64,000 bases of DNA, taken from positions 37,138,001-37,202,000 of the forward strand of contig OZ024745.1 of NCBI GenBank assembly GCA_964016885.1. The letters are read 5' to 3'. Under the pieces are notes generated by a model. The model saw nothing but the letters and a program-made list of their open reading frames with translations, had not been told where the DNA came from and made no database searches. Source of the DNA: Eledone cirrhosa. Taxonomy: Eukaryota. The translations under genes were made by a program, and so were the position numbers. Position 1 is the first letter of the stretch. Each line of letters begins with the position of its first letter. Of the stretch, positions 29,475-62,482 are shown one piece after another.

Positions 29475-29535
<61 letters not shown>

Positions 29536-29716
29536 TATATATATAAGTATATATATATATGTGTGTATATATATATATATATATACTTATATATATATAC
29601 TTATATATATATATATATATATATATACTTATATATATATATATATATATATAAGTATACTTATATATATATATAAGTATATATATATAAGTATATATAT
29701 ATATATATATATATAA

Positions 29717-29755
<39 letters not shown>

Positions 29756-29802
29756 TATATATATATATATATATAAGTATATATATATATATATATATAT
29801 AA

Positions 29803-29905
<103 letters not shown>

Positions 29906-29934
29906 TATATATATAAGTATATATATATAAAAGT

Positions 29935-31280
29935 ATAAATGGAAAAAATGAAACGAAATTTCATTTCTCACTCTTAGTACGGCTGTTACTTAAATACAAG
30001 TATGTATACGTACATATATATATGTATACAGACGTACAGTAGTATGTATATATATATACATACATGCACACATATATATATATGTATGTATGGATTTACC
30101 TAACATTTATTATAATGCTCGTTTTTTTTTGTAAACAAATATCCCGAATTAAGCCGTACAGTGTTTAGCAGCCATCGTTGCCCTTTTGTTCAACACTGAC
30201 AAAGGAACGATGTACTAGTTTCAAGCTTATTAACTATCGTCAGCACCGTATACCTTCCTGCCAGATGATTGAACGTCTGAAAGTATATACGTTCCTTATG
30301 CATATGAACGGCTGAGCAACCTAATTTGCATACGATAGCTAATAAGCTTGAAACTAATACATCGTTCCTTTGTCAGTGTTGAACATTTATTATAATGCTC
30401 GGTTTGTTTGTAAACAAATATCCCGAATGAAGCCGTACAGTGTTTAGCAACCATCGTTGCCCTTTTGTTCAACACTGACAAAGGAACGATGTATTAGTTT
30501 CAAGCTTATAAGCTATCGTATGCAAATTAGGCTGCTCAGCCGTTCATATGCATAAGGAACGTATATACTTTCAGACGTTCAATCATCTGGCAGGAAGGTA
30601 TACGGTGCTGACGATAGTTAATAAGCTTGAAACTAGTACATCGTTCCTTTTTCAGTGTTGAACAAAAGGGCAACGATGGTTGCTAAACACTGTACGGCTT
30701 CATTCGGGATACTTGTTTACAAACAAACCGAGCATTATAATAAATGTTAGGTAAATCCATACGTACATATGTGTGCATGTATGTATATATATACATACTA
30801 CTGTACGTCTGTATACATATATGTATGTACGTATAGATACTTATATTTAAGTAACAGCCGTACTAAGGGTGAGAAATGAAATTTCGTTTAATTTTTTCCA
30901 TTTATAGTTTTCGGTGCGCCCGGCCGATTAACTCACTCGATATACAAATTAGGCTGCTCAGCCGTTAATATGCATAAGGAAAGTATGTACTTTCAGACGT
31001 TCAATCATCTGGCAGGAAAGTATACGGTACTGACGATAGCTAATAAGCTTGAAACTAGTACATCGATCCTTTGTCAGTGTTGAACAAAAGAGCAACGATG
31101 GTTGCTAAACACTGTACGGATTAATTCGGGATGTTTGTTTACAAACAAACCGAGCATTATAATAAATGTTCGGTAAATCCATACGTACATATATATATGT
31201 GTGCATGTATGTATACATATGCATACTACTATACGTATGTATACATATATGTATGTACCTATACATACTTATATTTTTAT
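29935..31280. mobile_element. Family C complex array: several inversions plus a head-to-tail repeat (period 422); HHRs at 30207-30249 (-), 30602-30644 (+) and 31024-31066 (+)
   Basis: The two + strand HHRs are 422 bp apart in continuous homologous sequence. Truncated HHR halves lie at ~30333-30366 and ~30486-30519. Confidence 0.85.
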
Positions 31281-31290
31281 ATATATGTAA

Positions 31291-31371
<81 letters not shown>

Positions 31372-31566
31372 TATATATATATATATAAGTATATATATAT
31401 AAGTATATATATATATATAAGTATATATATATAAGTATATATATATATATAAGTATATATATATAAGTATATATATATATATAAGTATATATATATAAGT
31501 ATATATATATATATAAATATATATATATATAAGTATATATATATGTATAAGTATATATATATATAA

Positions 31567-31599
<33 letters not shown>

Positions 31600-31652
31600 T
31601 ATATATATATATATATATATATATATAAGTATATATATATATATATATATAA

Positions 31653-31709
<57 letters not shown>

Positions 31710-31740
31710 TATATATATATATAAGTATATATATATATAA

Positions 31741-31777
<37 letters not shown>

Positions 31778-31798
31778 TATATATATATATAAGTATAA

Positions 31799-31857
<59 letters not shown>

Positions 31858-31872
31858 TATATATAAGTATAA

Positions 31873-31912
<40 letters not shown>

Positions 31913-31915
<3 letters not shown>

Positions 31916-32080
31916 ATGAATTCCCTTTTCTATCAACCAATGACCTACACCCATCCCACTCCCCACCCTCTCCTACCACTTGAAGAGACCTATAAATACC
32001 ATACTTATTTTTTGATACGCAGATTCCTGATGATTTCTAAAGAATGAAACAGTTCTAGTCTCATCTATATTAAAACTATA
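31913..32080 (+). mobile_element. Family B fragment with internally deleted HHR (~32022-32060)
   Basis: GATTCCTGATGATTTCTAAAGAATGAAACAGTTCTAGTC, then lacks CTGTAGAATC relative to 13111-13170. Confidence 0.7.
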
Positions 32081-32132
32081 TATATATATAAGTATATATA
32101 TATATATATATATGTATATGTATATATATAAG

Positions 32133-32172
<40 letters not shown>

Positions 32173-32417
32173 TATAAGTATATATATATATATATAAGTA
32201 TATATATATATAAGTATATATATATATATAAGTATATATATATATAAGTATATATATATATAAGTATATATATATATATATATATAAGTATATATATATA
32301 TATAAGTATATATATATATATATAAGTATATATATATATAAGTATATATATATATAAGTATATATATATATAAGTATATATATATATATAAGAATATATA
32401 TATATATATATACATAA

Positions 32418-32472
<55 letters not shown>

Positions 32473-32649
32473 TATATATATATATATATAAGTATATATA
32501 TATATATAAGTATATATATATAAGTATATATATATATATATATAAGTATATATATATATAATGGAAAAATTTGAACAGGGACAAAACAGAGAGGCAGTAC
32601 AATAAATGTTTATTAATTTCACGCTCAGGATAGTGGGGGGTAGGTGGGG

Positions 32650-32680
32650 GACGACGTTTCGGGCATAAGCCCTTCCTCAG
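32650..32680 (-). ncRNA. HHR core in the PLE 3' UTR lacking an adjacent stem I
   Basis: CTGAGGA-aGGGC ttat GCCC-GAAA-CGTCG-TC; the flanks CTCAC and CCCCA do not pair. Confidence 0.6.
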
Positions 32681-34199
32681 GTGAGAAGTGTGTGGGAACA
32701 GAGTTCAAAAGGTGTGTAGGGGAGTGGTGGAGAGACATATAGCGAAAGGAAACGGTGCGAATGAAAAAAAACAAATAAAGATAAAAAATAAAAATAAAGC
32801 ATGATCAAAATACAAGGAATGAGAAAATTTAAAAATAAAGGCATGATCAAAATAAACTGAAATTAAAAGGGGGGTAAACAGGTGGTGGAAGGGTGTGGGG
32901 TGAGTAGGGGTGGTGGCGGGTGGAGTGGGGAGAGGAAGACGGGGTGTCCGAGCGGGGAGGGCTGAAGGTGGTGTGTGTGTGTAGGCGTGCGTGTGTGTGT
33001 GTGTGTGTGTGTATGTGAAAGTAAGGGTTGGGGGAAAAACGGGGTTGCATGTTCAGGAAGGGGTGTGTGTGGGGGGTGTTTTTGTGGGTCGGAGTGTCTG
33101 TGCGTGTGTGGATAGGGGGGTGGGGGGAGAGGAATCAGGAGGCTGAGGGTGTAAATATGTGGTGGGAAGCACGTGTGTGTGGGGTTTAAGCGTGTTGTGG
33201 GTGTGGGTGGCGTGTGGATAAAAAAATGTTTTGGGTGTGTGTGTGCGGGTGAGTTATATAGGTGATTACGCAAGAGGATGGTTGAAAAGTTGGTAAGTTC
33301 CAAGGATGTTCAGTAGATTGTTTGTAAGTCAAATTCTGCGTGTGGGTAATCCATGAAGTGGTGGTCGGAAGAGGAGAGATGTGGGGTGCGCACGCAACAG
33401 GAAGTGGTCAGCAGTGGGAGTGCTGTGGTCTGTTGGTGCTGGGAGGTGGCCAGAGGGCACAGCAGCAGTCAGTGCAATGATAGGGGGCGAGGATGGGTAG
33501 GTGTGAAAGTTGGAGTGAGGAGTGTGTGTGTGTGTGTATTAGTAGGGGTGTTAGTGGGATGAGTGAGTGTGGAGCGAGGGTGTGGGTGGAGTGGGGAGAG
33601 AAGGGTGTGTGTGGTTCTATGGAGGGAGTGTGGTGTACTGGTGTGTGTGTAGTTGGATGAAGAGGTGTTAGTGGGTGTAAGTATACGGGAGGTGGGGAGG
33701 GGTTGAATGCAGGTGTGAGTGGGGGTTAGTGGTGGTAGGGTGTGTAGAGTTGGTGGTGTACGAGGGTGTGTGGGTACGTGTGCGTGGGGTTGGGGGGTGT
33801 TAGTGATGTTAGTTGTGTGTGGGGTGGGTGGTGTAAGTGGGTGCGTGTGTTCGTGTGCTTGGGGTTAGGGGGTGTTAGTGAGGTTAGTTGCGGGCTGGTG
33901 GGATGGAGGTGTGGGGGTGAGAGGTGTGGGGGTGAGGGTTAGTGGTGGTAGTAGGGTGTGTGTTTAGTGTGAGCGCGTGTATATATGTGCAGGTGGGTGT
34001 GTGCGTGTGATAAGGAGGGGGAGGAGGAGAAGTGGGGAGGGAAGGATGTTAGTATGTTAGTTGGGGAAGGGTGGTCAGATGAGGGGTGGAGTGGAGGTGT
34101 TAGTATTGTTAGTGTGGGGTGGGCGGTGAAAAGGAGAGGTGTGTTAGTGGTGTTAGTGGGGGATAAGTGTGGGGGGAGGGGGCCGGTCGAACGCTAAAG

Positions 34200-36570
34200 G
34201 AATAAGGGTGGGGAGTTCAGGCCGGGGGGAGTGTGGGTCAGTAAGATGAAGATAGTTCGTTGTTCGACCGTAAGGCGATGGGCGGGTGTTCCGTGGCACT
34301 GGAGTAGGCCAAAGACTGTGTCCAGGGCCACCAAAGTGGCGGCCTTGGGGGAACTGCCCCCGAGACGAATATCCCGGAGGTGCTCCGTGACTCGGTCCGC
34401 CAGGCGACGTCCCGTCTGTCCGACATAAGTAGACTAGGTTGGAGGAGGTGCAGCGGAAGGCATGCCGAACCGAGAGAGAGTGGCCGTTGGGACCCTGGAA
34501 GGTGGTGGTGTTGGTGATGTGGGGACAGGTGTTGCAGCGGGGCCTAGAACAGGGAAAGGAACCGGGGGGGGGGAACAGAGCGTGGGTTGGGGGGTAGGGA
34601 GCTGTGGACGAGGAGGGTGCGGAGATTGCGTGCGCGTTTGAAGGAGGGGAGTGGTGGGGTTGAGAAGATGTGGGAGGTGGAGGGGTCGGACTGGAGGCGT
34701 CGGAAGAGGCGGTGGATGGTGCGGTGGAGGGGTAAGGTGGAGGGGTGGTAGGTGATGGGGAAGGGGAGACGGTGGGTGGGTGTGTGGTGGCGTGGGGTGA
34801 GGGTGGTAGAGCGGGGGACAGCACGGGCGCGGGTGAGAGCGGTGTAGACGAGAGAGTGGGGGTAACCTCTGCGGATGAAATGGCTGACTAGGGAAAGGAC
34901 CTGGGACTCGAAGTCAGCATCACGGCTACAGAGGCGACGGATCCTGAGAAGTTGGGAGTAGGGAATGGAGTGTTTAGTGTGGGTGGGGTGGGAAGAGGTG
35001 AAGTCGAAGTAAGAGTGGGAGTCGGTGGGTTTGAAGAAGGCGGAGGTGACGAGGGAGTGGTGGAGGGGTCGAAGGCGACGGAGATGTCTAAGAAGTGGAC
35101 GTGGGTGGTGGAGATAGAGATGGTGAAGTGGAGGGAGGGGTGGAAGGAGCAGAAGAAGGAGAGAAAGGAGTCGAGCTGTTCTCGGGTGAGGCTCGTGGCT
35201 TCGATACAGTCGTCAATGTAACGACCTTACAGTTCGGGCGTGGGGCCGGTGTTCTGGGCAAAGATTTGGGCCTCAACATGGCCAACAAAAAGGTTGGCAT
35301 AGTTGGGGCCCATTCTTGTGCCCATGGCTACCCCCGTGACCTGTTGGTAAAAACTCACCCGAGAAGGAGAAACAATTTAGGGTGAGGACCAGCTCGAAGG
35401 AGGGTGTGGGTGGAGGGAATGGGGGAGGGGCGAAGGTCGAGGTAGTGTTTGAGGGCGCGAAGGCCGTCGGCGTGGGGAATGACTGTATAGAGCGACTTGA
35501 TGTCTAGGGTGAAGAGGAAGGGCTGTGGGCCGGGTAGGTAGGTGAAGGAGTCGAAAAGGCGCAGGGCGTGGTTGGTGTCGGAGATGTGGGAGGGGAGGGT
35601 GGTGACAAGGGGGGCGAGGAGGGAGTCGAGAAAGGCGGAGATGAGTTCGGTGGGGGAAGTTGCAAGCGGAGACGATGGGGCGGCCGGGGTTGTCGGGTTT
35701 GTGGAGTTTGGGGAGGAAGTAGATGGTGGGGGTGCGGGGGTGCGGACGATGAGGTGGGAAGCGGTGGGGGGAGGAGGGAGGAGGCGATAAGGTCTTTGAT
35801 GTTGGAGGAGACTTGTTGTTGGTAGAGGGGGGTGGGATCGGAGGGTAGAGGGTGGTAAAAGAGGGGGTTACAGAGCTGCCTGAGGGCTTCGGCCGTGTAG
35901 GAGGTCCGCGCGCCATACCACTACGGCGCCTCCCTTGTCCGCCGGTTTGATGACGATGTCATCTCGGCTACGGAGGGAGCGGAGAGCGAGGAGTTCGCCC
36001 CGTGAGATATTGTGCCGTTTGGAACGGTGGCGGAAGTCGAAACGATTTACTGCGCTACGGCTGGCTTCGACGAAGGCGTCCAGGGTGCTAAATTGCCCTG
36101 GGGCCGGCGTCCAAGAAGATGGTCGTCGGCCCAGGGCGAGAAACGGGTCTGGGGCGTCCGGAGCCGGTGGCGTTCGGCTGAAATGTGCCTGTAGCTTAGT
36201 GCGTCGCACGAATCGCTCGACTTCCGTTCGGGTGCGGAACTCGTCGCTGTGCGGAGTGTGGGGCATGAAGCGAAGGCCTCTACTAAGGAGTGAGCGCTCA
36301 GGTGCGGAGAGGGGGAGGTCAGGGGGTATGGTGACCTCAAGGGGTAGGGTTGGGGTGTTTGAGGGCGGAGGGGAGGGTGTGGTGAGGGATGAGGTGGAGG
36401 GTGGAGATTGGGTAGGGGTGTGGGTCGGGGGAGAGGTGGAGAGTGGTGGGCGTATGGGGATGGACGGGTGGTGGTGGATGGGGGAGGGGGGAGTGAGTGT
36501 AGCTTGCGGGCTTTGGTGGAGCTGAGGAACGAGAAGAGGTTGTGGATGAAGGAGAGGATGGCTTGAATGG
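34200..36570 (-). pseudogene. Frameshifted PLE reverse transcriptase / GIY-YIG endonuclease ORF
   Basis: Motifs in order: IKPADKGGAVVVW; IYFLPKLHKPDNPGRPIVSAC; FTLDIKSLYTVIP; GVAMGTRMGPNYANLFVG; RYIDD (YIDD 35209-35220); PCSRPRCNTC; NLVY/YVGQTGRRLADRVTEH (spacer deleted); PPGLN. Confidence 0.92.
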
Positions 36571-36822
36571 CGTAGGACAGAACAAAGGAGAGGCACATAA
36601 ACAAAGAAGGGAATCCCCAGTCACTGAAGAGGTCACAGGGTGTGTGACGAAAGAACTATGACAATATATAAACAACTATTTGGTTGTGGAACCAACCAAC
36701 CAACCAACCAGAAATTTATAAATTTATAAATTTATTATAAATTTATTATAATAAATTGAAGTGAAAGCAACTAGTGCGTGTGTTTCTTATTGGCAACATG
36801 ACCCTCCCAAAGTATAACAATA
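36566..36822 (+). mobile_element. Family F PLE 3' end joined head-to-head to the Neptune-like element; HHR at 36620-36662 (+)
   Basis: GTCA-CTGAAGA-gGTCACA gggtg TGTGAC-GAAA-GAAC-TA-TGAC; reverse-complement homologue of 51685-51937. Confidence 0.82.
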
Positions 36823-38690
<1,868 letters not shown>

Positions 38691-38888
38691 ACACCCACAC
38701 ACATGTACACACTCATATATATATATATCTGTATCTCTGTCTGTGTTTTTTTGTGTATCTGTATGTATGTATGTATGTATGTATGTATGTATGTATGTAT
38801 GTATGTATGTATGTATGTATGCATGCATGCATGCATGTATGTGTGTATGTGTGTATGTATGTATCTGTGTATGTATGTTCTGGTTTCA

Positions 38889-39272
38889 CTGGATTAGCAG
38901 TATTGGTAGAGGGTCGGACGCCATGCTTTGACGTATAGAGTTACGTCCCTTTATGATCTGAGTTCAAATCCCGCCAAGGTTAACTTTGCCTTTCATCCTC
39001 ACGGGGTCGATAAAATAAAGTACCAGTAATGCACTGAGTAATTTCTGGCCTTGTGCCTAACGTAGAAACAATTATTTTATAAATTTGGATTGGCAGTATC
39101 GATAGAGAGTCGAACACAATGCTTTGAAGCATAGAGTTACGTCCCTTTATGATCTGAGTTCAAATCCCGCCGAGGTTAACTTTGCCTTTCATCCTTACGG
39201 GGTCGATAAAATAAAGTACCAGTAATATACTGCGATAATTGCTGGCTTGTGCCAAAAGTAGGAACAATTATT
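38889..39272 (+). mobile_element. Two tandem tRNA-derived SINEs (duplicated at ~44967-45357)
   Basis: Two B boxes (GAGTTCAAATCC) and two SINE tails. Confidence 0.85.
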
Positions 39273-40615
39273 TTATAAATTTATTCCAATAGAGTGAGAA
39301 CCGGTTTTTAACATAGACATAAGACTCTCTCATTGGGATTTAGCTAGGTAAACAATATGCAAATCACTGTATTTTATGGAACTCAAATCATTCCTTAAAG
39401 ATTCCTTTATATATTTCTATATATTTATTTATCTTTCTTTTACGTATTTTTGTTGTTGTTAACTACAAGCAGAATACATCAGAGTTCATGTGATATTTTT
39501 CTCTATTTTCTAATCATTAACCAACTAAGATATATTCCATTGCTTCCAGAACAAATATTTTCCAACTCATATTACTATACTTAATTTTCTCACAGCTCTG
39601 TAATAATTATTTGTCTAATATATGACATACAAATGCTCGTGGTCTCAACTAATGTTGTTCAAGCTGCGTGGTTCACCCCATTAGTGGAGACAAAAATATA
39701 ATTGATCACGACGTTAAGACACGATCAACAAACAGATTTTTTTTTCTTATTGAGTCGCAATACAAAACGCAGCTCTTGTTGTGGTTCGCAGTAATTAATG
39801 TTTGAATGACGCTGAATGATTAAAGTATTGGCCCAACGGTCATAAAGTCGTTAGATCGATTTGCAGACCGGGTGTCGCGTTGTCTTTGAGCAAGACAATT
39901 AATTTAACATTGCTTTTGTTCACTGAGATAAGCTCCGGGATTCTGCACACATGCAAACATAGTCAAACGAACATAATAATATCTTGCATCAAGCTTCTCA
40001 TGGGTTTACTGTTTGTTGCATGCACATCAAACATAACTGCTTAATTCTCAAACTTGGCGATGATTTAAAACATCGAATAGAATTTTCGTGGTATTTGTCC
40101 CGGTTCTATACACTTTGATTTCAAATCTCGCACAGGTCAACTTTGTCTTTTGAACGTTGATTATGAATTCATACAGTTCTTCTTTCTTTCTGGACCTAGA
40201 AATAAATTAGCAGCTAATGGCAGGGAATTGTTAGAGCGTCGAACGAGATGTCTAGCGCTATCTGTGCCGGTACTTTGTATCCTGGGATAACATACCATCT
40301 ACAGATTCAAGCACTACCGATGGCGAGAGTTAATTAGCCGACAACGAGACCACAATTGATTCTGAAAGCTGCAATGTTTGGGAGAGGACTCTAGTTGCCT
40401 GCTTCTGCAGTCAAACTCGTCTATATAGGAATATTTGAACGTTACACTGCAAGTAACAAAATGATTATGAATTTATACAGTTCTTCTGATGTTTGGAGAA
40501 TGTGAACTATTCTTGTTTTCACGGTGTCCGTCTGTAGTTAAGTGGTTCAAACTAACAAGGTTTGAATTTATTAACCAGGAACGCATCTAGCATTGCAAAC
40601 GGGAGCCACTTGCGA

Positions 40616-40910
40616 AGGCGTGTTGCTTAGCGGCGAGGGAGTTCGGCCCATGATCGTAAGGTCGTGAGCCTGATTCCGTGCAGTGTGTTGTGTCTTTGAG
40701 CAAGACACTATATTTCACATTGCATCAGTTCACTCAGCTGCTAAAAATAAGTTGTACCTGAAATTCAAAGGTCCAGGCCTTGTTACACACTATATTACGC
40801 TAAATCTTTCTAAAAAACAGATTAAACGTATATGTGGCTATGGAATACTGAACCACTTGCACGTCAATTTCAGGCTATCCCGTTGTTTGAAAAACTGGAA
40901 CACTCATCAT
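40616..40910 (+). mobile_element. Second, older tRNA-headed SINE family (duplicated at ~46703-46997)
   Basis: GGCGTGTTGCTTAGCGG head and TGTGTCTTTGAGCAAGACACT core; a related core lies at ~39880, and tail-like repeats at ~55080-55420. Confidence 0.55.
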
Positions 40911-42406
40911 CAGAATCAACAATATGATTCAACAATATGAATCACTGGCCATTCTGCCAGCAGTCTAATGCCCTACCTATCAACATAGCCGGCAATGATT
41001 TCTTTAGTCATCCCATAGACCGATTCATTTTTGTATTTATTGCAGTACACTGTGTTCAGATTTCAAATCCTGCTGCGGTCAAAATGGCCGTTCATACTTC
41101 ATAATTGAAAACAATAAAATATCACGCTAACGTGGTGGACTAGCAGTCTCATTATAGCATTGGATAGGATGTCTTGAGGTATATTTTTACCGACGTTTTG
41201 ATTTATGAGTTCAAAACCTGCTTTAGCTGGTTGCTAGAAGTAATACTCCCCGGTTTAGCAAGACTACACTGTCTTTTGGCGCCTGTAGTGGAATCCCTTA
41301 TGCTGCAAGCAATTGGACTATGACTCAGTTGTATAATCTATTTAATATTTATATTTTAGTAATGGCCACAATGAAAATAACATGTAGGTGTTTCAGATTT
41401 TATTAAATCGCTTCACAATCATGTTGAACTTGGGCTATAAACAATTTCATTAGAAGTATGTTATACTTGTATATCTACATGGCTTCAGACACGACCCATA
41501 TTAGAAAGTAAACTGATCGAATATTTCCAGTACATTGCTGAAAAACTTCCTTTTCCCTTCTTACCAGTACATTGCTGAAAAACGTCATGGAAACTACCTT
41601 CTCTCTCTAAGTGACACAATCAACATCAACAACAACAAATTATGCAAGACAGACAAATAGAATAATAAAATTTCACATTATTATTATTATATGTGATATT
41701 ATTTTACCTACTTAAGTCAGTTTCCAAAGAGGAAAACACCTAATAGAGATTTAGTCGATTATATTGACCACAATATAATCTACTGGCGGTTCCATAGCCA
41801 ATGAGGGTTATCCGAGGCGTGGTTATTGCTAGTTGGAAACTATATTGACCACAATACTGAAACTTATTTTAGCGTTCTCTTTTTGTCGAACTGCTAAGTT
41901 ACGGGGTATAAAAATAATAAACGTAGGAGTATACACGTACACAAACTTAAGCTTCTACACAGTTTTCATCTAGCACAGTTTTCATCTAGCAAATTTCACA
42001 AGGCATTAATCAACCCGAAACTATATATATATATATGAAGACTTTGCCCAAGATGTGACAAGGGGAAGTGGCCCTAAACCAGTTGGCAGCGAAGCGAACT
42101 CCTTAACCACACAGCCACCGCCATGCCTATATATACATGTATATATATATGTATATATGTGTGTGTCTGATGGTATCTAAGATGCTTCCATAGGCAGTAT
42201 GCCGGTTGAGCACTCTATGCTCTTACAGAGCAGAGTATAATAGAATATCATGTGAGAGAATAAGCTCCGAAATCATTAGACGTGTCCGTTGAACCTGCGG
42301 GTCCAGAATCAGACAGATCCACACAATGATCGCATCTCGAGCTGTCCACCGGCGAAACATTTGTAACACACAAAAAATTGAGTTCAGATGCATCACTGAT
42401 TTTTCG

Positions 42407-42491
<85 letters not shown>

Positions 42492-42770
42492 GTTTGTGTA
42501 TGTGTGTGTGAGTATGACTATATATATATATATATTTGTATGTATATATACATATTTATATTTCAATAAGATAACTATTTTTTCCTTCTTATTTTTTTCT
42601 CTTCCAATCGTTATATTTTTTCTCTTCTGCTAATGTGCTCCAGAAGATTTAATCTATTTTGTTTCCACAATGATGTTTAAACTCTTCTACAAACAGGTAC
42701 ACGAAGTTAGTTCGGTACAACGTTGTATACAAGTTTTAATACTATCATTAAAAGTTTTAAGTCTTGTTTT

Positions 42771-42970
42771 NNNNNNNNNNNNNNNNNNNNNNNNNNNNNN
42801 NNNNNNNNNNNNNNNNNNNNNNNNNNNNNNNNNNNNNNNNNNNNNNNNNNNNNNNNNNNNNNNNNNNNNNNNNNNNNNNNNNNNNNNNNNNNNNNNNNNN
42901 NNNNNNNNNNNNNNNNNNNNNNNNNNNNNNNNNNNNNNNNNNNNNNNNNNNNNNNNNNNNNNNNNNNNNN
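42771..42970. other. Assembly gap (200 N)
   Basis: Run of n. Confidence 1.
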
Positions 42971-43008
42971 ATATATATACTATATATATATAATATATAT
43001 ATAAGTAT

Positions 43009-43042
<34 letters not shown>

Positions 43043-43044
43043 AG

Positions 43045-43110
<66 letters not shown>

Positions 43111-43142
43111 TATATAAAGTATATATATAATATATATATTAT

Positions 43143-43175
<33 letters not shown>

Positions 43176-43176
43176 A

Positions 43177-43209
<33 letters not shown>

Positions 43210-43229
43210 TATATATATATATATATATA

Positions 43230-43289
<60 letters not shown>

Positions 43290-43298
43290 TATATATAT

Positions 43299-43329
<31 letters not shown>

Positions 43330-43371
43330 AGTATATATTATATATATATATATATAATATATTATATATAT

Positions 43372-43454
<83 letters not shown>

Positions 43455-43463
43455 GTATATATA

Positions 43464-43517
<54 letters not shown>

Positions 43518-43713
43518 TTATATATATATAGTATATATATTTATATATATATAGTATATTATATATATATATATATATAATTATTATTATATATATTATA
43601 TTATATATATAATAATATATAATATATATATATATAATTATATATAATATATTTATATATATATATATAATTATATATATATATATTATATATATATAAT
43701 ATATATATATAAT

Positions 43714-43760
<47 letters not shown>

Positions 43761-43763
43761 ATA

Positions 43764-43844
<81 letters not shown>

Positions 43845-43888
43845 ATATTATATATATATATATAATATATATATTTATATATATAATA

Positions 43889-43923
<35 letters not shown>

Positions 43924-44027
43924 TATATATATAATTATATATTATATATATATATAAGTATATATATTATATATATATATATTTATATTATATATATATA
44001 TATTATATTATATATTATATATATATT

Positions 44028-44102
<75 letters not shown>

Positions 44103-44113
44103 GTATATATATA

Positions 44114-44152
<39 letters not shown>

Positions 44153-44173
44153 TATATATATATATATATATTA

Positions 44174-44302
<129 letters not shown>

Positions 44303-44426
44303 TTATATATATATAAGTATATATATATATATATAGTATATATATATATAGTTATAATATTATATACTTTATATATATTATATATATATATATATAGTAT
44401 ATATATATATTTATATTATATATATA

Positions 44427-44457
<31 letters not shown>

Positions 44458-44514
44458 CTTGTATATATATATATATATATATATATATACTTTTATATAA
44501 TATATATATATATA

Positions 44515-44584
<70 letters not shown>

Positions 44585-44585
44585 A

Positions 44586-44658
<73 letters not shown>

Positions 44659-44720
44659 ATATATATAAAGATTATATATATAAATATATATATATTATAT
44701 ATATATAATAATATATATAA

Positions 44721-44761
<41 letters not shown>

Positions 44762-47700
44762 CATAGTCACACCCACACACATGTACACACTCATATATAT
44801 ATATATCTGTAACTCTGTCTGTGTTTTTTTGTGTATCTGTATGTATGTATGTATGTATGTATGTATGTATGTATGTATGTATGTATGTATGTATGTATGC
44901 ATGCATGCATGCATGTATGTGTGTATGTGTGTATGTATGTATCTGTGTATGTATGTTCTGGTTTCACTGGATTAGCAGTATTGGTAGAGGGTCGGACGCC
45001 ATGCTTTGACGTATAGAGTTACGTCCCTTTATGATCTGAGTTCAAATCCCGCCAAGGTTAACTTTGCCTTTCATCCTCACGGGGTCGATAAAATAAAGTA
45101 CCAGTAATGCACTGAGTAATTTCTGGCCTTGTGCCTAACGTAGAAACAATTATTTTATAAATTTGGATTGGCAGTAAGTAAGTATCGATAGAGAGTCGAA
45201 CACAATGCTTTGAAGCATAGAGTTACGTCCCTTTATGATCTGAGTTCAAATCCCGCCGAGGTTAACTTTGCCTTTCATCCTTACGGGGTCGATAAAATAA
45301 AGTACCAGTAATATACTGCGATAATTGCTGGCTTGTGCCAAAAGTAGGAACAATTATTTTATAAATTTATTCCAATAGAGTGAGAACCGGTTTTTAACAT
45401 AGACATAAGACTCTCTCATTGGGATTTAGCTAGGTAAACAATATGCAAATCACTGTATTTTATGGAACTCAAATCATTCCTTAAAGATTCCTTTATATAT
45501 TTCTATATATTTATTTATCTTTCTTTTACGTATTTTTGTTGTTGTTAACTACAAGCAGAATACATCAGAGTTCATGTGATATTTTTCTCTATTTTCTAAT
45601 CATTAACCAACTAAGATATATTCCATTGCTTCCAGAACAAATATTTTCCAACTCATATTACTATACTTAATTTTCTCACAGCTCTGTAATAATTATTTGT
45701 CTAATATATGACATACAAATGCTCGTGGTCTCAACTAATGTTGTTCAAGCTGCGTGGTTCACCCCATTAGTGGAGACAAAAATATAATTGATCACGACGT
45801 TAAGACACGATCAACAAACAGATTTTTTTTTCTTATTGAGTCGCAATACAAAACGCAGCTCTTGTTGTGGTTCGCAGTAATTAATGTTTGAATGACGCTG
45901 AATGATTAAAGTATTGGCCCCAACGGTCATAAAGTCGTTAGATCGATTTGCAGACCGGGTGTCGCGTTGTCTTTGAGCAAGACAATTAATTTAACATTGC
46001 TTTTGTTCACTGAGATAAGCTCCGGGATTCTGCACACATGCAAACATAGTCAAACGAACATAATAATATCTTGCATCAAGCTTCTCATGGGTTTACTGTT
46101 TGTTGCATGCACATCAAACATAACTGCTTAATTCTCAAACTTGGCGATGATTTAAAACATCGAATAGAATTTTCGTGGTATTTGTCCCGGTTCTATACAC
46201 TTTGATTTCAAATCTCGCACAGGTCAACTTTGTCTTTTGAACGTTGATTATGAATTCATACAGTTCTTCTTTCTTTCTGGACCTAGAAATAAATTAGCAG
46301 CTAATGGCAGGGAATTGTTAGAGCGTCGAACGAGATGTCTAGCGCTATCTGTGCCGGTACTTTGTATCCTGGGATAACATACCATCTACAGATTCAAGCA
46401 CTACCGATGGCGAGAGTTAATTAGCCGACAACGAGACCACAATTGATTCTGAAAGCTGCAATGTTTGGGAGAGGACTCTAGTTGCCTGCTTCTGCAGTCA
46501 AACTCGTCTATATAGGAATATTTGAACGTTACACTGCAAGTAACAAAATGATTATGAATTTATACAGTTCTTCTGATGTTTGGAGAATGTGAACTATTCT
46601 TGTTTTCACGGTGTCCGTCTGTAGTTAAGTGGTTCAAACTAACAAGGTTTGAATTTATTAACCAGGAACGCATCTAGCATTGCAAACGGGAGCCACTTGC
46701 GAAGGCGTGTTGCTTAGCGGCGAGGGAGTTCGGCCCATGATCGTAAGGTCGTGAGCCTGATTCCGTGCAGTGTGTTGTGTCTTTGAGCAAGACACTATAT
46801 TTCACATTGCATCAGTTCACTCAGCTGCTAAAAATAAGTTGTACCTGAAATTCAAAGGTCCAGGCCTTGTTACACACTATATTACGCTAAATCTTTCTAA
46901 AAAACAGATTAAACGTATATGTGGCTATGGAATACTGAACCACTTGCACGTCAATTTCAGGCTATCCCGTTGTTTGAAAAACTGGAACACTCATCATCAG
47001 AATCAACAATATGATTCAACAATATGAATCACTGGCCATTCTGCCAGCAGTCTAATGCCCTACCTATCAACATAGCCGGCAATGATTTCTTTAGTCATCC
47101 CATAGACCGATTCATTTTTGTATTTATTGCAGTACACTGTGTTCAGATTTCAAATCCTGCTGCGGTCAAAATGGCCGTTCATACTTCATAATTGAAAACA
47201 ATAAAATATCACGCTAACGTGGTGGACTAGCAGTCTCATTATAGCATTGGATAGGATGTCTTGAGGTATATTTTTACCGACGTTTTGATTTATGAGTTCA
47301 AAACCTGCTTTAGCTGGTTGCTAGAAGTAATACTCCCCGGTTTAGCAAGACTACACTGTCTTTTGGCGCCTGTAGTGGAATCCCTTATGCTGCAAGCAAT
47401 TGGACTATGACTCAGTTGTATAATCTATTTAATATTTATATTTTAGTAATGGCCACAATGAAAATAACATGTAGGTGTTTCAGATTTTATTAAATCGCTT
47501 CACAATCATGTTGAACTTGGGCTATAAACAATTTCATTAGAAGTATGTTATACTTGTATATCTACATGGCTTCAGACACGACCCATATTAGAAAGTAAAC
47601 TGATCGAATATTTCCAGTACATTGCTGAAAAACTTCCTTTTCCCTTCTTACCAGTACATTGCTGAAAAACGTCATGGAAACTACCTTCTCTCTCTAAGTG

Positions 47701-48493
47701 ACACAATCAACATCAACAACAACAAATTATGCAAGACAGACAAATAGAATAATAAAATTTCACATTATTATTATTATATGTGATATTATTTTACCTACTT
47801 AAGTCAGTTTCCAAAGAGGAAAACACCTAATAGAGATTTAGTCGATTATATTGACCACAATATAATCTACTGGCGGTTCCATAGCCAATGAGGGTTATCC
47901 GAGGCGTGGTTATTGCTAGTTGGAAACTATATTGACCACAATACTGAAACTTATTTTAGCGTTCTCTTTTTGTCGAACTGCTAAGTTACGGGGTATAAAA
48001 ATAATAAACGTAGGAGTATACACGTACACAAACTTAAGCTTCTACACAGTTTTCATCTAGCACAGTTTTCATCTAGCAAATTTCACAAGGCATTAATCAA
48101 CCCGAAACTATATATATATATATGAAGACTTTGCCCAAGATGTGACAAGGGGAAGTGGCCCTAAACCAGTTGGCAGCGAAGCGAACTCCTTAACCACACA
48201 GCCACCGCCATGCCTATATATACATGTATATATATATGTATATATGTGTGTGTCTGATGGTATCTAAGATGCTTCCATAGGCAGTATGCCGGTTGAGCAC
48301 TCTATGCTCTTACAGAGCAGAGTATAATAGAATATCATGTGAGAGAATAAGCTCCGAAATCATTAGACGTGTCCGTTGAACCTGCGGGTCCAGAATCAGA
48401 CAGATCCACACAATGATCGCATCTCGAGCTGTCCACCGGCGAAACATTTGTAACACACAAAAAATTGAGTTCAGATGCATCACTGATTTTTCG

Positions 48494-48597
<104 letters not shown>

Positions 48598-49112
48598 CAC
48601 ATGTTTGTGTATGTGTGTGTGAGTATGACTATATATATATATATATTTGTATGTATATATACATATTTATATTTCAATAAGATAACTATTTTTTCCTTCT
48701 TATTTTTTTCTCTTCCAATCGTTATATTTTTTCTCTTCTGCTAATGTGCTCCAGAAGATTTAATCTATTTTGTTTCCACAATGATGTTTAAACTCTTCTA
48801 CAAACAGGTACACGAAGTTAGTTCGGTACAACGTTGTATACAAGTTTTAATACTATCATTAAAAGTTTTAAGTCTTGTTTTCTTCCTTACTGTATTTTAA
48901 TGTGAAAGCCAGAAAGCTTTTGAAAACATTTTTTAAGCTTCTTATAAATTTTCATTGCAAGATAAGAAATCGACGCAGAATTATTATTATTATTTTTAGT
49001 ATTATTATCATTATTATTTGTAAGGAAGTTAAAAGTAGTAAACAGTCTTCGTCTGTCTGACACACACAAGGGAAATGAATAAATATATAATGTAAAACTT
49101 TTAAACCCATAA

Positions 49113-51645: not shown

Positions 51646-51684
51646 ATATATATATATATAATATATATATATATAATATATATA

Positions 51685-52318
51685 TTGTTATACTTTGGGA
51701 GGGTCATGTTGCCAATAAGAAACACACGCACCAGTTGCTTTCACTTCAATTTATTATTATAATAAATTTATAATAAATTTATAAATTTATAAATTTCTGA
51801 TTGGTTGGTTGGTTCCACAACCAGATAGTTGTTTATATATTGTCATAGTTCTTTCGTCACACACTCTGTGACCTCTTCAGTAACTGGGGATTCCTTTCTT
51901 TGTTTCTGTGCCTCTCCTTTGTTCTGTCCTACGCCATTTTGTTTCTGTGTCTGTGTTGTGTGCTCAGTCTGCGCATGCGCCATATCCGGGTGTCTGTGTG
52001 TGTTTATGTCATTTATTTATTTGTTTATTTACATGTTACTGGTTGGTTGTTTGTTCTATGTGTGTGTGTGTTTTCATTTTGTCCTTAATTGTAAGTTGTG
52101 ATGTTGCTGTTCCACTCATATTTTCTATTTAATTTTGGTTGTAATTCTTTTATGTTTATTGCCTCTGTAATTTGTCTAAACATTGCGTCTTTTCTCTGTG
52201 CAGATTCTATTTTTATTTCTATGTTCTCTAATTTACCCTTGTGTTCTATTTTAGCATGTTGGTATGTTGGTAGAGTACAGATGATTCAGATGATTCTTTA
52301 CAAATTCAGAAACGAAAT
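51685..52318 (-). mobile_element. Family F PLE 3' portion: GIY-YIG C-terminus, 3' UTR, HHR at 51842-51884 (-), short inverted tip at ~52292-52318
   Basis: Minus strand encodes AMFRQITEAINIKELQPKLNRKYEW. The HHR reads GTTA-CTGAAGA-gGTCACA gagtg TGTGAC-GAAA-GAAC-TA-TGAC. Confidence 0.8.
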
Positions 52319-53579: not shown

Positions 53580-54360
53580 AATATATCATAAATCATGTCC
53601 ATAGAATCATTAGATAAAATATACACTATTTCCTCTCCCAATTAGCATAATTAACCACATAAAAAATCAATTAGACCAGGCTATAAGAATAAAGGCTCCT
53701 ATGAAGAAATATTTGATAAATAACCGCAAGCAGCCTCTTCGCGACTGACCGCAATAGAGTATTTACCCAACATTTCAACAGCATGTAGAAATTGACTAAA
53801 TATACCGTTTAATAATCTCCCGTTGGGTTGAGATGCAATTTGGGCGATATTGGGCTGCGCTTTCTAGCAACCAGCCTACTCGCCGTAAGCAACTAATCAC
53901 ATTCTTTCCAACTTGACCACTGGCACGTCACGATTCTTAACCATTTTTTAAATCTATTTCTGGCGGGGATCGTATTGGAAAATTAACTGTCCTATTGAGT
54001 TTGTCTCCTGATGAGTTCGATACTCGAGATTTATCCTTAATAGGATATCTCAAAATACGAACAAAACCATGGTAGGAATATATTACGGTAAGAATGTACG
54101 CATTTCTTCTAACTTTAAATTTATACCTAATTGTGTATGGTTGACGGTATATTTAGTCAGTTTCTACATGCTGTTGAAATGTTGGGTAAATACTCTATTG
54201 CGGTCAGCCGCGAAGAGGCTGCTTTCGGTTATTTATCAAATATTTTTTCATAGGAGCCTTTATTCTTATAGCCTGGTCTAATTGATTTTTCATGTGGTTA
54301 ATTATGCTAATTGGGAGAGGAAATAGTGTACTGATTCTATGAACATGATTTATAATATAT
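53580..54360. mobile_element. Family H inverted pair with decayed long-stem-II HHR at ~54006-54076 (+)
   Basis: 53580-53808 is the reverse complement of ~54144-54360. The motif reads CTGATGA-GTTCG..GAGAT tTATCC ttaa tAGGATA TCTC..CGAAC-AAAA-CCATGG-TA. Confidence 0.65.
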
Positions 54361-54361
54361 A

Positions 54362-54650
54362 TATTGTTATACTTTGGGAGGTCATGCTGCCAATAAAAAC
54401 ACGCGCACCTGTTGGTTTTCACTTCAATTTATTATGTTTCCGGTTGGTTGGTTGGTTCGATAACCGGAAGGTTGTTTATATATTGTCAAAGCTCTTTCGT
54501 CACACATTCTGTGACCTTATAATAAATTGAAATGAAAACCAACAGCTGCGTGTGTTTTTATTGGCAGCATGACCCTCCCAAAGTATAAAACAATATCTGT
54601 TTCAACACACGTTTTCAGATAAGAAATCTCGCAAAATAAATTCAAAAGCG
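54362..54650. mobile_element. Family F inverted pair; minus arm truncated at the base of HHR stem II
   Basis: Junction at about 54517 (..GTGACCT|TATAATAAATTG..). Confidence 0.72.
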
Positions 54651-56393: not shown

Positions 56394-59300
56394 GACGGAG
56401 CGTTGGAAGAGTTGGAGGGGGAGACGGAGAGTTGGAAGAGTCGGAGGGGGAGACGGAGAGTTGGAAGAGTCGGAGGGGGAGACGGAGAGTTGGAAGAGTT
56501 GGAGGGGGAGACGGAGGGTTGGAAGAGTTGGAGGGGAGACGGAGAGTTGGAAGAGTTGGAGGGGGAGACGGAGAGTTGGAAGAGTTGGAGGGGGAGACGG
56601 AGAGTTGGAAGAGTTGGAGGGGGAGACGGAGAGTTGGAAGAGTTGGAGGGGGAGACGGAGAGTTGGAAGAGTCGGAGGGGGAGACGGAGAGTTGGAAGAG
56701 TTGGAGGGGAGACGGAGAGTTAGAAGAGTTGGAGGGGAGACGGAGAGTTGGAAGAGTTGGAGGGGGAGACGGAGGGTTGGAAGAGTTGGAGGGGGAGGGG
56801 GAGGGTTGGAAGAGTTTGAAGAGTTGGAGGGGGAGACGGAGAGTTGGAAGAGTTGGAGGGGGAGACGGAGAGTTGGAAGAGTTGGAGGGGGAGACGGAGG
56901 GTTGGAAGAGTTGGAGGGGGAGACGGAGAGTTGGAAGAGTTGGAGGGGGAGACGGAGGGTTGGAAGAGTTGGAGGGGGAGACGGGGAGTTTGAAGAGTTG
57001 GAGGGGGAGACGGAGAGTTGGAAGAGTTGGAGGGGGAGACGGAGAGTTGGAAGAGTTGGAGGGGGAGACGGAGAGTTGGAAGAGTTGGAGGGGGAGACGG
57101 AGGGTTGGAAGAGTTGGAGGGGGAGACGGAGAGTTGGAAGAGTTGGAGGGGGAGACGGAGGGTTGGAAGAGTTGGAGGGGGAGACGGGGAGTTTGAAGAG
57201 TTGGAGGGGGAGACGGAGAGTTGGAAGAGTTGGAGGGGGAGACGGAGAGTTGGAAGAGTTGGAGGGGGAGACGGAGGGTTGGAAGAGTTGGAGGGGGAGA
57301 CGGAGGGTTGGAAGAGTTGGAGGGGGAGACGGAGAGTTGGAAGAGTTGGAGGGGGAGACGGAGAGTTTGAAGAGTCGGAGGGGGAGACGGAGGGTTGGAA
57401 GAGTTGGAGGGGGAGACGGAGGGTTGGAAGAGTTGGAGGGGGAGACAGAGAGTTGGAAGAGTTGGAGGGGGAGACGGAGAGTTTGAAGAGTCGGAGGGGG
57501 AGACGGAGGGTTGGAAGAGTTGGAGGGGGAGACGGGGAGTTTGAAGAGTTGGAGGGGGAGACGGAGAGTTGGAAGAGTTGGAGGGGGAGACGGAGGGTTG
57601 GAAGAGTTGGAGGGGGAGACGGAGAGTTGGAAGAGTTGGAGGGGGAGACGGAGGGTTGGAAGAGTTGGAGGGGGAGACGGGGAGTTTGAAGAGTTGGAGG
57701 GGGAGACGGAGAGTTGGAAGAGTTGGAGGGGGAGACGGAGGGTTGGAAGAGTTGGAGGGGGAGACGGAGAGTTGGAAGAGTTGGAGGGGGAGACGGAGAG
57801 TTGGAAGAGTTGGAGGGGGAGACGGAGAGTTGGAAGAGTTGGAGGGGGAGACGGAGGGTTGGAAGAGTTGGAGGGGGAGACGGAGGGTTGGAAGAGTTGG
57901 AGGGGGAGACGGAGAGTTGGAAGAGTTGGAGGGGGAGACGGAGGGTTGGAAGAGTTGGAGGGGGAGACGGAGAGTTGGAAGAGTTGGAGGGGGAGACGGA
58001 GGGTTGGAAGAGTTGGAGGGGGAGACGGGGAGTTTGAAGAGTTGGAGGGGGAGACGGAGAGTTGGAAGAGTTGGAGGGGGAGACGAAGAGTTGGAAGAGT
58101 TGGAGGGGGAGACGGAGAGTTGGAAGAGTCGGAGGGGGAGACGGAGAGTTGGAAGAGTTGGAGGGGAGACGGAGAGTTGGAAGAGTTGGAGGGGAGACGG
58201 AGAGTTGGAAGAGTTGGAGGGGGAGACGGAGAGTTGGAAGAGTTGGAGGGGGAGACGGAGAGTTGGAAGAGTTGGAGGGGAGACGGAGAGTTGGAAGAGT
58301 TGGAGGGGGAGACGGAGAGTTGGAAGAGTTGGAGGGGGAGACGGAGAGTTGGAAGAGTTGGAGGGGGAGACGGAGAGTTGGAAGAGTCGGAGGGGGAGAC
58401 GGAGAGTTGGAAGAGTTGGAGGGGGAGACGGAGAGTTGGAAGAGTTGGAGGGGGAGACGGAGGGTTGGAAAAGTTTGAAGAGTTGGAGGGGGAGACGGAG
58501 GGTTGGAAGAGTCGGAGGGGGAGACGGAGGGTTGGAAGAGTTGGAGGGGGAGACGGAGAGTTGGAAGAGTCGGAGGGGGAGACGGAGAGTTGGAAGAGTC
58601 GGAGGGGGAGACGGAGAGTTGGAAGAGTCGGAGGGGGAGACGGAAGGTTGGAAGAGTTGGAGGGGGAGACGGAGAGTTGGAAGAGTCGGAGGGGGAGACG
58701 GAGGGTTGGAAGAGTCGGAAGGGGAGACGGAGGGTTGGAAGAGTTGGAGGGGGAGACGGAGGGTTGGAAGAGTTGGAGGGGGAGACGGAGGGTTGGAAGA
58801 GTTGGAGGGGGAGACGGAGAGTTGGAAGAGTCGGAGGGGGAGACGGAGAGTTGGAAGAGTCGGAGGGGGAGACGGAGAGTTGGAAGAGTCGGAGGGGGAG
58901 ACGGAAGGTTGGAAGAGTTGGAGGGGGAGACGGAGAGTTGGAAGAGTCGGAGGGGGAGACGGAGGGTTGGAAGAGTCGGAAGGGGAGACGGAGGGTTGGA
59001 AGAGTTGGAGGGGGAGACGGAGGGTTGGAAGAGTTGGAGGGGGAGACGGAGGGTTGGAAGAGTTGGAGGGGGAGACGGAGAGTTGGAAGAGTCGGAGGGG
59101 GAGACGGAGAGTTGGAAGAGTTGGAGGGGGAGACGGAGGGTTGGAAAAGTTTGAAGAGTTGGAGGGGGAGACGGAGGGTTGGAAGAGTTGGAGGGGGAGA
59201 CGGAGAGTTGGAAGAGTCGGAGGGGGAGACGGAGGGTTGGAAGAGTTGGAGGGGGAGACGGAGGGTTGGAAGAGTTGGAGGGGGAGACGGAGGGTTGGAA

Positions 59301-62056: not shown

Positions 62057-62482
62057 GGGGGGAGAGATGGGAAGCCACTTACAAGAATACATGTAGATGA
62101 ATATTCTTGATGTTACATTAAAAGAAACCTAACATTTTAACATAATCCATGTGTGTAAAAGTATGTATGTTCAACGACGACTGCGTAATACTGATATATT
62201 GATGCTTAGCACTAAATATATACGTGGGTGTACAAGTATAGTTGAATGTACACACACACATATATAAATACAGTTAAAGATAGATATAGGCAACAATATG
62301 TTGTGTATATGTTTTATAAGTAGATGATAAAATCGAATAAAACATGAAGAACGTTCACCTCCAATATTTATACATCAATATATACATCACGTGGTTAGAA
62401 GACGGCAGTGGAATTTGTCTAATTTGAGAATTGAATTGAATTCGTAACTTTTGCAATGTTTTTGCTACAGAAAATATTTCTA

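Follow-up and report, generated by a model that had tools for sequence, protein, structure and literature searches.

The locus at positions 29935 to 31280 of the window, i.e., the whole stretch of 64,000 nucleotides analyzed here, raises the question of what kind of element Family C is and from what kind of RNA it is copied. The original prediction regarded it as a retrozyme copied from a circular or multimeric RNA. The window consists of AT-rich DNA of animal type that is dense in (TA)n runs, and 3379 of its 64000 bases (5.3%) belong to Family C. Judged by its repeats, among them a SINE-like one near 38.9 kb, it resembles cephalopod DNA, probably that of an octopus.

Anatomy of the Family C insertions

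The four clusters in which one unit had been predicted were all recovered at their positions. The unit is ~420-445 nt long, with periods of 422, 428, and 444 nt across the clusters; the period of 428 predicted at 15261/15689 is among them. As ruler for the unit coordinates, we used the copy at 8392-8835 (444 nt), in which CUGA lies at position 125 and the predicted cut follows position 155. Every cluster (4/4) contains a head-to-head inversion inside (TA)n, a feature that the original prediction had overlooked, and an inverted repeat (29935-30911 against itself, 90%) takes up ~1 kb of 29935-31280. The clusters are ~610, 670, 710, and 1350 nt long, and the arms within the insertions are 4-5% diverged. 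A fifth trace, also absent from the original prediction, is a tail-only remnant at 20565-20590 that has the same 3' end as the tailed copies. The anatomy was derived from the four dissected insertions and this remnant in the window. Cluster 4 and its flanks comprise the following features.

29929..31280, no strand: cluster 4, a composite head-to-head insertion in (TA)n
29929..30332, minus: arm X, inverted, unit 36-444 plus ~5 nt past the joint, tailed; outer end to the left, into (TA)n
30207..30249, minus: type I hammerhead motif of arm X, core 30213-30243
30333..30385, plus: fragment B, unit 128-179; its hammerhead lacks CUGA and has one altered stem III base
30381..30519, minus: fragment C, unit 128-270, inverted; stem III change as in B; the C/U1 joint repeats the X/B joint
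30519..30906, plus: unit copy U1, unit 36-444
30602..30644, plus: type I hammerhead motif in U1, with the cut predicted after 30638
30847..30906, plus: tail in U1, a ~60-nt optional 3' extension between two fixed end sites
30907..31270, plus: unit copy U2, unit 1 to ~385, no tail; outer end to the right, into TA-rich repeat
31024..31066, plus: type I hammerhead motif in U2, with the cut predicted after 31060
29478..29929, no strand: (TA)n target, left flank of cluster 4
31270..32560, no strand: TA-rich simple repeat, right flank of cluster 4

The other clusters and the remnant are built as follows.

8145..8835, no strand: cluster 1, hammerhead at 8510-8552
8164-8385, minus: cluster 1 inverted arm, unit 167 to ~383, no tail, short stutter at the end
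8384-8835, plus: cluster 1 plus arm, unit 437-444 followed by 1-444, tailed
15251..15864, no strand: cluster 2, arms meeting in a 20-nt palindrome
15251-15754, minus: cluster 2 long arm, unit 306-444 followed by 1 to ~383, no tail
15465-15507, minus: cluster 2 hammerhead
15735-15864, plus: cluster 2 short arm, unit 306-444, tailed
20986..21699, no strand: cluster 3, hammerhead at 21446-21488
20986-21286, minus: cluster 3 inverted arm, unit 128-444, tailed
21288-21699, plus: cluster 3 plus arm, unit 395-444 followed by 1 to ~376, no tail
20565..20590, plus: tail-only remnant of the unit's last ~25 nt, flanked by (TA)n runs on both sides

The head-to-tail joint, at which the tail is followed by unit position 1, is kept in all four clusters, and behind it lies a direct repeat of 8 to ~385 nt (4/4; pseudo-LTR). 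The predicted head-to-tail repetition is present in the form of this joint but does not go beyond 1.8 units, and a tandem pair of same-strand hammerheads is found in one of the four clusters, namely cluster 4.

Coding content and fold of the unit

As predicted, the unit holds no credible ORF: in the four forward arms, no coding frame on either strand exceeds 76 codons, and frames starting from ATG reach at most 55. A 37-codon frame over the hammerhead, present in both units of cluster 4, was rejected as a gene, the ATG frame being lost in clusters 1 to 3. The GC content of the Family C region, flanks included, is 0.24-0.26 and thus under 50%, as in retrozymes. The hairpins listed in the original prediction were found in the unit, whose fold surpassed that of shuffled sequences (z -3.65). 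With the TA-rich part removed, z ranged from -2.3 to -5.5 in the sense and from -1.9 to -3.9 in the antisense orientation (5/5 copies). As both strands fold better than shuffles, the chain of hairpins is real yet not strand-specific.

Scans of metagenomes with a 28-nt unit pattern and of viral contigs for the unit pattern yielded 0 matches each. A 22-nt pattern gave one metagenome match (L001:3192-3213), which lies on a bacterial contig just before an alanyl-tRNA-synthetase-like ORF and was discarded as a chance match; the ORFs of this contig, which by eye we take to be era, der, an M23 peptidase, and alaS-like, are unrelated to Family C.

A conserved hammerhead predicted to cut as a dimer

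Six complete type I hammerhead cores of the form CUGACGA..GAAACUAGUA are present in the window, compared to none in 100 shuffles, and the hammerheads predicted with stem I from 30602 and 31024 (period 422) are among its features. The structure comprises a stem I of 6 bp followed by a 6-nt bulge and ~17 more pairs, a 4-bp stem II that carries an AAUA loop and, at its base, a U facing a U, and a stem III of one or two pairs inside the palindrome ACUAGU. In this predicted fold, 96.6% of 174 cells are paired, versus 31-42% when the structure is slid. At position 4 of stem I, cluster 1 has A-U, clusters 2 and 3 have U.G, and cluster 4 has G.U. The assertion that stem I varies while staying paired therefore holds for one pair that changes on both sides, but the covariation is not significant, with 42 of 500 shuffles scoring as high for the six copies. 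The core shows 0 deviations in 96 cells versus 22 in 450 cells of the surrounding columns (P ~0.008), and among the best 40 of 112 variant entries from sequencing reads, the sole core change concerns the free position N7. Over the window, Rfam gave no hammerhead at gathering score and reported only U4; at E values up to 10, the 91 matches within 29900-31300 contained no hammerhead, the weak hits being hairpin-shaped, of miRNA type, and below gathering score.

Cut sites were predicted from the established hammerhead numbering. With its stem III of 1-2 bp closed by a palindrome, the hammerhead is predicted to cut only as a dimer. A monomer could therefore be released only at the few loci that carry two units on the same strand. 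A double hammerhead of U1 and U2 can be drawn at -136.4 kcal/mol, versus -143.6 kcal/mol for the free fold, i.e., ~7 above the minimum with two stem I pairs of U2 (31024) broken; most copies in the reads carry the paired letters at these sites. The segment 30590-31075, which had been proposed as a dimer construct, is consequently a poor choice, since its second hammerhead is the one with the two broken pairs.

These properties bear on the classical non-LTR retrozyme route, in which double-hammerhead self-cleavage would give ~430-nt circles and a PLE (Penelope-like element) reverse transcriptase (RT) with two internal starts would copy them for more than one turn. The size, low GC content, absence of an ORF, and hammerhead type match animal retrozymes; the joint is conserved in two organisms, as is the core within the family, and the U1-U2 double hammerhead is possible at 7 kcal/mol above the minimum. 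Comparable weak motifs are described in axolotl (PMC7229834; this paper, PMC4209133, PMC8557442, PMC3846280, and bioRxiv 10.64898/2026.07.22.740005 are cited throughout for the part of their text that was covered). HHR_Amex1 has a one-pair stem III with a palindromic tetraloop and HHR_Amex2 has U.U at the base of stem II; both families cleave as dimers and form circles. The Family C motif unites the two weak features, the likeness being one of structure. Canonical animal type I hammerheads with such helix sizes and a palindromic loop are described as working as dimers, and circles have been proposed as PLE templates (PMC4209133). As detailed below, the genomic copies nevertheless make this route unlikely.

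Fixed outer ends and variable inner breaks

All nine outer ends face TA repeats as 3' ends of the unit. They fall in two places ~60 nt apart, at unit ~373-385 (four ends) and 441-449 (five ends). The probability of such clustering by chance is bounded at 2e-7 for two 14-nt arcs and was 2e-4 in a simulation with two 40-nt arcs, the arcs having been chosen post hoc. Each cluster has exactly one tailed and one untailed end (4/4), which a coin toss would produce in 1 of 16 cases. The ends are not set by simple annealing, because a longer TA run of 10 nt within the unit (30784-30793) never serves as an end. In contrast to the outer ends, the ten distinct inner (5') breaks are scattered, and none of them (0/10) coincides with the predicted cut, the nearest lying at +11, +23, and -28. 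The statement that copies begin and end at different registers is thus correct for the inner 5' breaks only. With outer ends at two fixed sites and scattered inner breaks, the unit is not freely permuted: its 3' ends are fixed and its 5' ends variable.

The inner joints consist of a 20-nt palindrome in cluster 2, a 6-nt palindrome in cluster 3, and otherwise homologies of 1-5 nt. Both flanks being TA repeats, a target-site duplication is unreadable; non-LTR retrozymes lack an LTR, PBS, and PPT, and any target-site duplication that they have is large. The last 35-40 nt of the tail are predicted to form a hairpin in five of six copies, that of U1 being weaker; in the modeled fold, this hairpin is a candidate protein binding site. 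Two further observations concern the ends. At the short end of cluster 1 (8145-8180), ~20 nt of the unit end are repeated over a short TA run, a stutter that repeated priming at one site might leave. Inner breaks at unit 128, inside the CUGA box, occur in two separate clusters (21286, 30333, 30519).

Templates of clusters 3 and 4

One pass round one circle should yield identical tandem units that are equidistant from a co-inserted inverted arm. In cluster 4, the comparison of U1 with U2 gives 21 differences in 322 sites (6.5%), that of X with U1 18 in 388, and that of X with U2 28 in 328. Arm X shares five diagnostic states (62, 77, 135, 232, 270) with U1 and none with U2. The joint of unit 36 (inverted) with 128 is present twice, at 30332 and 30519, and fragments B and C have a private change at unit 153 in common; on account of the doubled joint and this common change, X plus B is read as a copy of the composite C-U1. 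A 2-nt deletion and a substitution in the inverted arm of cluster 3 are shared with cluster 2 and not with the arm's own neighbor. Because tandem neighbors differ, X sides with U1, and an older inversion joint was duplicated, the sequences point to templates that would have been linear, longer than one unit, and already composite. Unit site 218 groups C with U1 rather than X, in conflict with a simple tree. Arm-to-arm conversion or fold-back synthesis could also make X resemble U1, a mixed dimeric circle is a possible template for cluster 4, and fixed ends would also be expected from an RT starting internally on a circular template.

Of the predicted copying from a circular or multimeric RNA, the multimeric half therefore fits, whereas the fixed ends, the inversions, the short tandems, the non-identical neighbors, and the absence of breaks at the cut (0/10) leave the monomeric circle unsupported. 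The same features count against the classical retrozyme route: tandem neighbors are different variants, a composite with an older inversion was duplicated, arrays do not exceed 1.8 units, and a same-strand hammerhead pair is found in 1/4 clusters. Moreover, one of nine retrozyme dimers was cleaved in vitro according to the covered part of bioRxiv 10.64898/2026.07.22.740005, and the anole PLE protein PAc mainly used uncleaved RNA (PMC11167929).

Family C in sequencing reads

Reads of 4 of 15 runs were mapped onto one period (30690-31111, with 30690-30802 masked). The runs were X1 (organism A, possibly the sample of the window itself; 9449 pieces), X13 (same species label as X1, from another study with a reduced-representation library; 77464 reads), X4 (organism B; 3906 pieces, mostly 80-95% alike), and X5 (15 pieces). 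Read-through of the joint at 30906 was seen in 116 X1 contigs and 92 X4 contigs and from 226 starts in X13. In X1, 66 contigs run into (TA)n at this position; in X13, 7484 reads depart at 30840 and reach (AT)n 12 letters on. Both end types thus recur beyond the window, X1 possibly being the window's own sample. Opposite-strand joints make up 8 of 15 joint entries in X13 (the best 15 of 57), and such joints also gather at 31020-31067. X13 ends at 30880, 30947, and 30950 and loose-end piles at 30883-30884 coincide with AATT sites and were excluded as probable cuts of the library enzyme. The summed depth of X1 is ~2 million and was not taken as copy number. Family C is abundant and common to at least two organisms.

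The reads also bear on whether the clusters might be no more than pLTR debris left by 5' truncation of a longer coding PLE. Truncation affects most PLE copies, and hammerhead pairs on opposite strands, 100-700 bp apart, are described near PLEs in Schistosoma (PMC4209133). An ORF-bearing extension could hide among the loose-end entries beyond the best 24 of 804. In these best 24, taken from non-RNA runs, no end lies at the cut site and none extends the unit into a common longer body. Depth of X1 over the 5' third of the unit is like that over the 3' part, a weak measure. In all four clusters, the tail leads straight into unit position 1 and the next hammerhead follows 125 nt on, with no ORF between, so that we consider an origin as pLTR debris improbable. 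Since the same tail-to-start joint is present in four clusters and is read through in three of four runs, the data support Family C as self-contained: a non-coding unit of retrozyme size that bears a hammerhead, is linked to PLE machinery, and is more than loose pLTR pieces.

Other elements in the window

A coding PLE, broken by frameshifts and stops, lies next to the right flank of cluster 4 and outside Family C.

32561..36566, minus: broken coding Penelope-like element with its own hammerhead at 32680

It presumably retains remnants of an RT, a zinc-finger linker, and an endonuclease, recognized by eye, and its strand is very C-rich. None of its five frames (5/5) had a Pfam match. In the Atlas, one piece of it was placed with HTH_animal clusters at 0.96, the family being found on 46-57% of the members. 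Judged from its sequence by the linker described in the covered text of PMC8557442, the element would be Neptune/Nematis-like. It ends in (TA)n, its last 10 nt being identical to those of the Family C tail, and it exemplifies the kind of helper present. A comparison of the unit with 4.3 kb of this PLE, the only one compared, gave a best match of 19/22 nt at both 3' termini (E 0.22), a hint in sequence at the lineage of the helper and not an identification. The 5' side of the broken PLE meets, head-to-head, a different hammerhead family (36566-36829), which in turn leads into (TA)n; judging from this junction, a single insertion may draw its two arms from different RNAs.

This second hammerhead family has a CUGAAGA core and G-C at the base of a long stem II. 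It is found at 36566-36829 (plus), 51676-51938 (minus), 22510-22702 (minus), 13231-13348 (minus), and 54355-54595; its copies at 36824, 51676, and 13241 share almost the same end point in (TA)n. Members of a third family, in which, as in Family C, two U residues face each other at the base of stem II, lie at 7927-8147, 13038-13182, 27987-28049, and 32020-32104, the second of them being a near-perfect head-to-head palindrome ending in (TA)n. CUGAnGA..GAAA motifs at 2226 (plus), 12645 (minus), and 24817 (minus) may represent other hammerhead families.

Two families of short palindromic MITE-like elements also occupy (TA)n, one at 8860-8995 and with ends at 9559, 11981, 12482, 12750, and 25977 and the other at 20626-20753 and 20810-20937. 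A ~6.1-kb duplication (~36820-42560 and 42970-48670), possibly an assembly artifact, has a run of N between its copies and contains two U4 snRNA genes of equal Rfam score (41772-41900 and 47859-47987). A purine-rich minisatellite of 5.7 kb is located at 56394-62057 (29-nt unit, 192 copies, 91% matches).

Comparison with known mobile elements

Animal non-LTR retrozymes, as described in the covered parts of PMC7229834 and bioRxiv 10.64898/2026.07.22.740005, resemble Family C in being non-coding, 150-450 nt long, and under 50% GC, in having a head-to-tail joint, and in sharing their genomes with PLEs. Their type I hammerhead likewise has a 6-bp stem I, a 4-bp stem II, and a palindromic weak stem III. 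They differ in forming arrays of up to 62-300 units and in having circles detected by northern blot, whereas Family C reaches at most 1.8 units and is described here from DNA. The inverted arm, the two fixed 3' ends, and the (TA)n target of Family C are not described for retrozymes in the text covered. Retrozyme circles have been demonstrated in coral, mussel, and axolotl, and PLEs were called "a strong candidate" for retrozyme mobilization (PMC7229834, Cervera and de la Pena 2020). More recently, Li, Clavereau, and Pollet (bioRxiv 10.64898/2026.07.22.740005) argued that retrozymes are non-autonomous PLE derivatives, leaving the mechanisms to be elucidated; by the covered text, their preprint sampled no mollusc.

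Endonuclease-bearing (EN+) PLEs, i.e., Penelope/Poseidon, Neptune, Nematis, and Naiad, share with Family C a partial tandem, an inverted 5'-truncated head-to-head copy, a palindrome or short homology at the joint, a one-ended tail, an AT-rich or (TA)n target, and a hammerhead in the repeat (covered text of PMC8557442, PMC3846280, and PMC11167929). Family C differs from them by the lack of an RT/GIY-YIG ORF, by a whole unit of 430 nt, and by a tail of ~60 nt versus 30-40. Its hammerhead has canonical helix sizes and U.U at 10.1-11.1, whereas the minimal hammerheads of PLEs have G-C at this site and a long stem II (PMC4209133). Chlamys PLEs of Chlamydomonas, e.g., MRC1, are alike in having ORF-free members, pLTRs, and head-to-tail copies, and MRC1-type elements have their 3' end in common with coding families (PMC8557442); these elements belong to a green alga and to a clade with an N-terminal endonuclease and without canonical hammerheads, whereas Family C is an animal element with a hammerhead.

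The inverted ends in TA repeats, together with true palindromic MITE-like elements in the same TA runs, could suggest a DNA-level element (a MITE or fold-back transposon at TA, or replication or repair palindromes in (TA)n), a most improbable origin given that the two ends differ by ~60 nt in 4/4 clusters and lengths vary over ~610-1350 nt, contrary to the matching terminal inverted repeats and fixed length of MITEs and class II fold-back elements, that arm lengths and inner joints all differ, that a one-ended remnant exists, and that a conserved hammerhead core has no role in DNA transposons.

In our literature search, no cephalopod family of this kind was found; Repbase, Dfam, subscription papers, and the supplementary figures of Cervera may already hold it. 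Two papers on cephalopod repeats mention Penelope elements and, in the covered part of the main text, not the word "ribozyme" (PMC13282606, PMC8967140). The kind as such is already known, animal retrozymes now being equated with non-autonomous PLE derivatives, and Family C is a new family within it. In its anatomy, Family C works like a PLE; in the strict sense of cleavage and a circle, it is a candidate retrozyme.

A probable non-autonomous Penelope-like element as the best explanation

Taken together, Family C is probably a non-autonomous PLE that would be copied in trans, by the RT/GIY-YIG endonuclease of a coding PLE, from linear RNA of more than unit length. We favor this reading because each feature of genomic PLE insertions is present and the ORF is not: the unit contains no ORF with RT and GIY-YIG and hence is not autonomous. 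According to the covered text of PMC8557442, PLEs insert into microsatellites as partial tandems, with an inverted and 5'-truncated copy adjoining the 5' end and a tail of 30-40 bp that is often one-ended; inverted copies are reported to be mostly head-to-head with palindromes at the joint (PMC3846280). In biochemical assays, purified PAc acted on AT-rich DNA by cutting and extending the two strands, and its reverse transcription began within the RNA, at two neighboring sites between which the tail lies. For PAc, hammerhead cleavage is dispensable, uncleaved RNA is the main template, and no RNA-seq ends were found at the cut site (PMC11167929).

On this basis, we infer the following course for the non-autonomous element. 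A partial-tandem copy would be transcribed through more than one unit. By analogy to PAc, the helper would then bind near the 3' hairpin and cut both strands of (TA)n, and the RT would start inside the RNA at one of two sites ~60 nt apart. The genomic result is observed: one end with the 60-nt tail and the other without it. Two opposite 5'-truncated products, either two primed cDNAs or one folded back, would subsequently be joined at short homologies or palindromes. Read-through from the tail into the next unit, which is seen in the copies, restores the partial tandem. The hammerhead, finally, is predicted to cut only as a dimer.

A doubtful extension would have the retrozyme make use of the PLE machinery, with rare two-unit loci releasing a 430-nt circle and a dimeric PLE protein priming at both ends of the (TA)n cut. 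As part of the same, equally tentative claim, the two fixed internal starts would be used on separate RNAs, and each insertion would be built from two templates joined in head-to-head orientation.

Significance of Family C

As a probable non-autonomous PLE, Family C combines an ORF-free unit of retrozyme size with the whole insertion signature of PLEs and hence provides structural evidence for PLE mobilization in trans. All cis-acting signals would sit inside 430 nt, making the unit a minimal natural substrate. Its abundance offers large numbers for addressing questions on PLEs, i.e., the two starts, the single tail, the use of one or two templates, and circular versus linear RNA. The motif escapes Rfam, and repeat pipelines might classify the copies as MITEs or simple repeats. 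If the combined reading of circle release and two-ended PLE priming were true, the family, which may number many thousands of insertions, would directly connect circular retrozyme RNA of animals with PLE insertion, a connection that has been missing.
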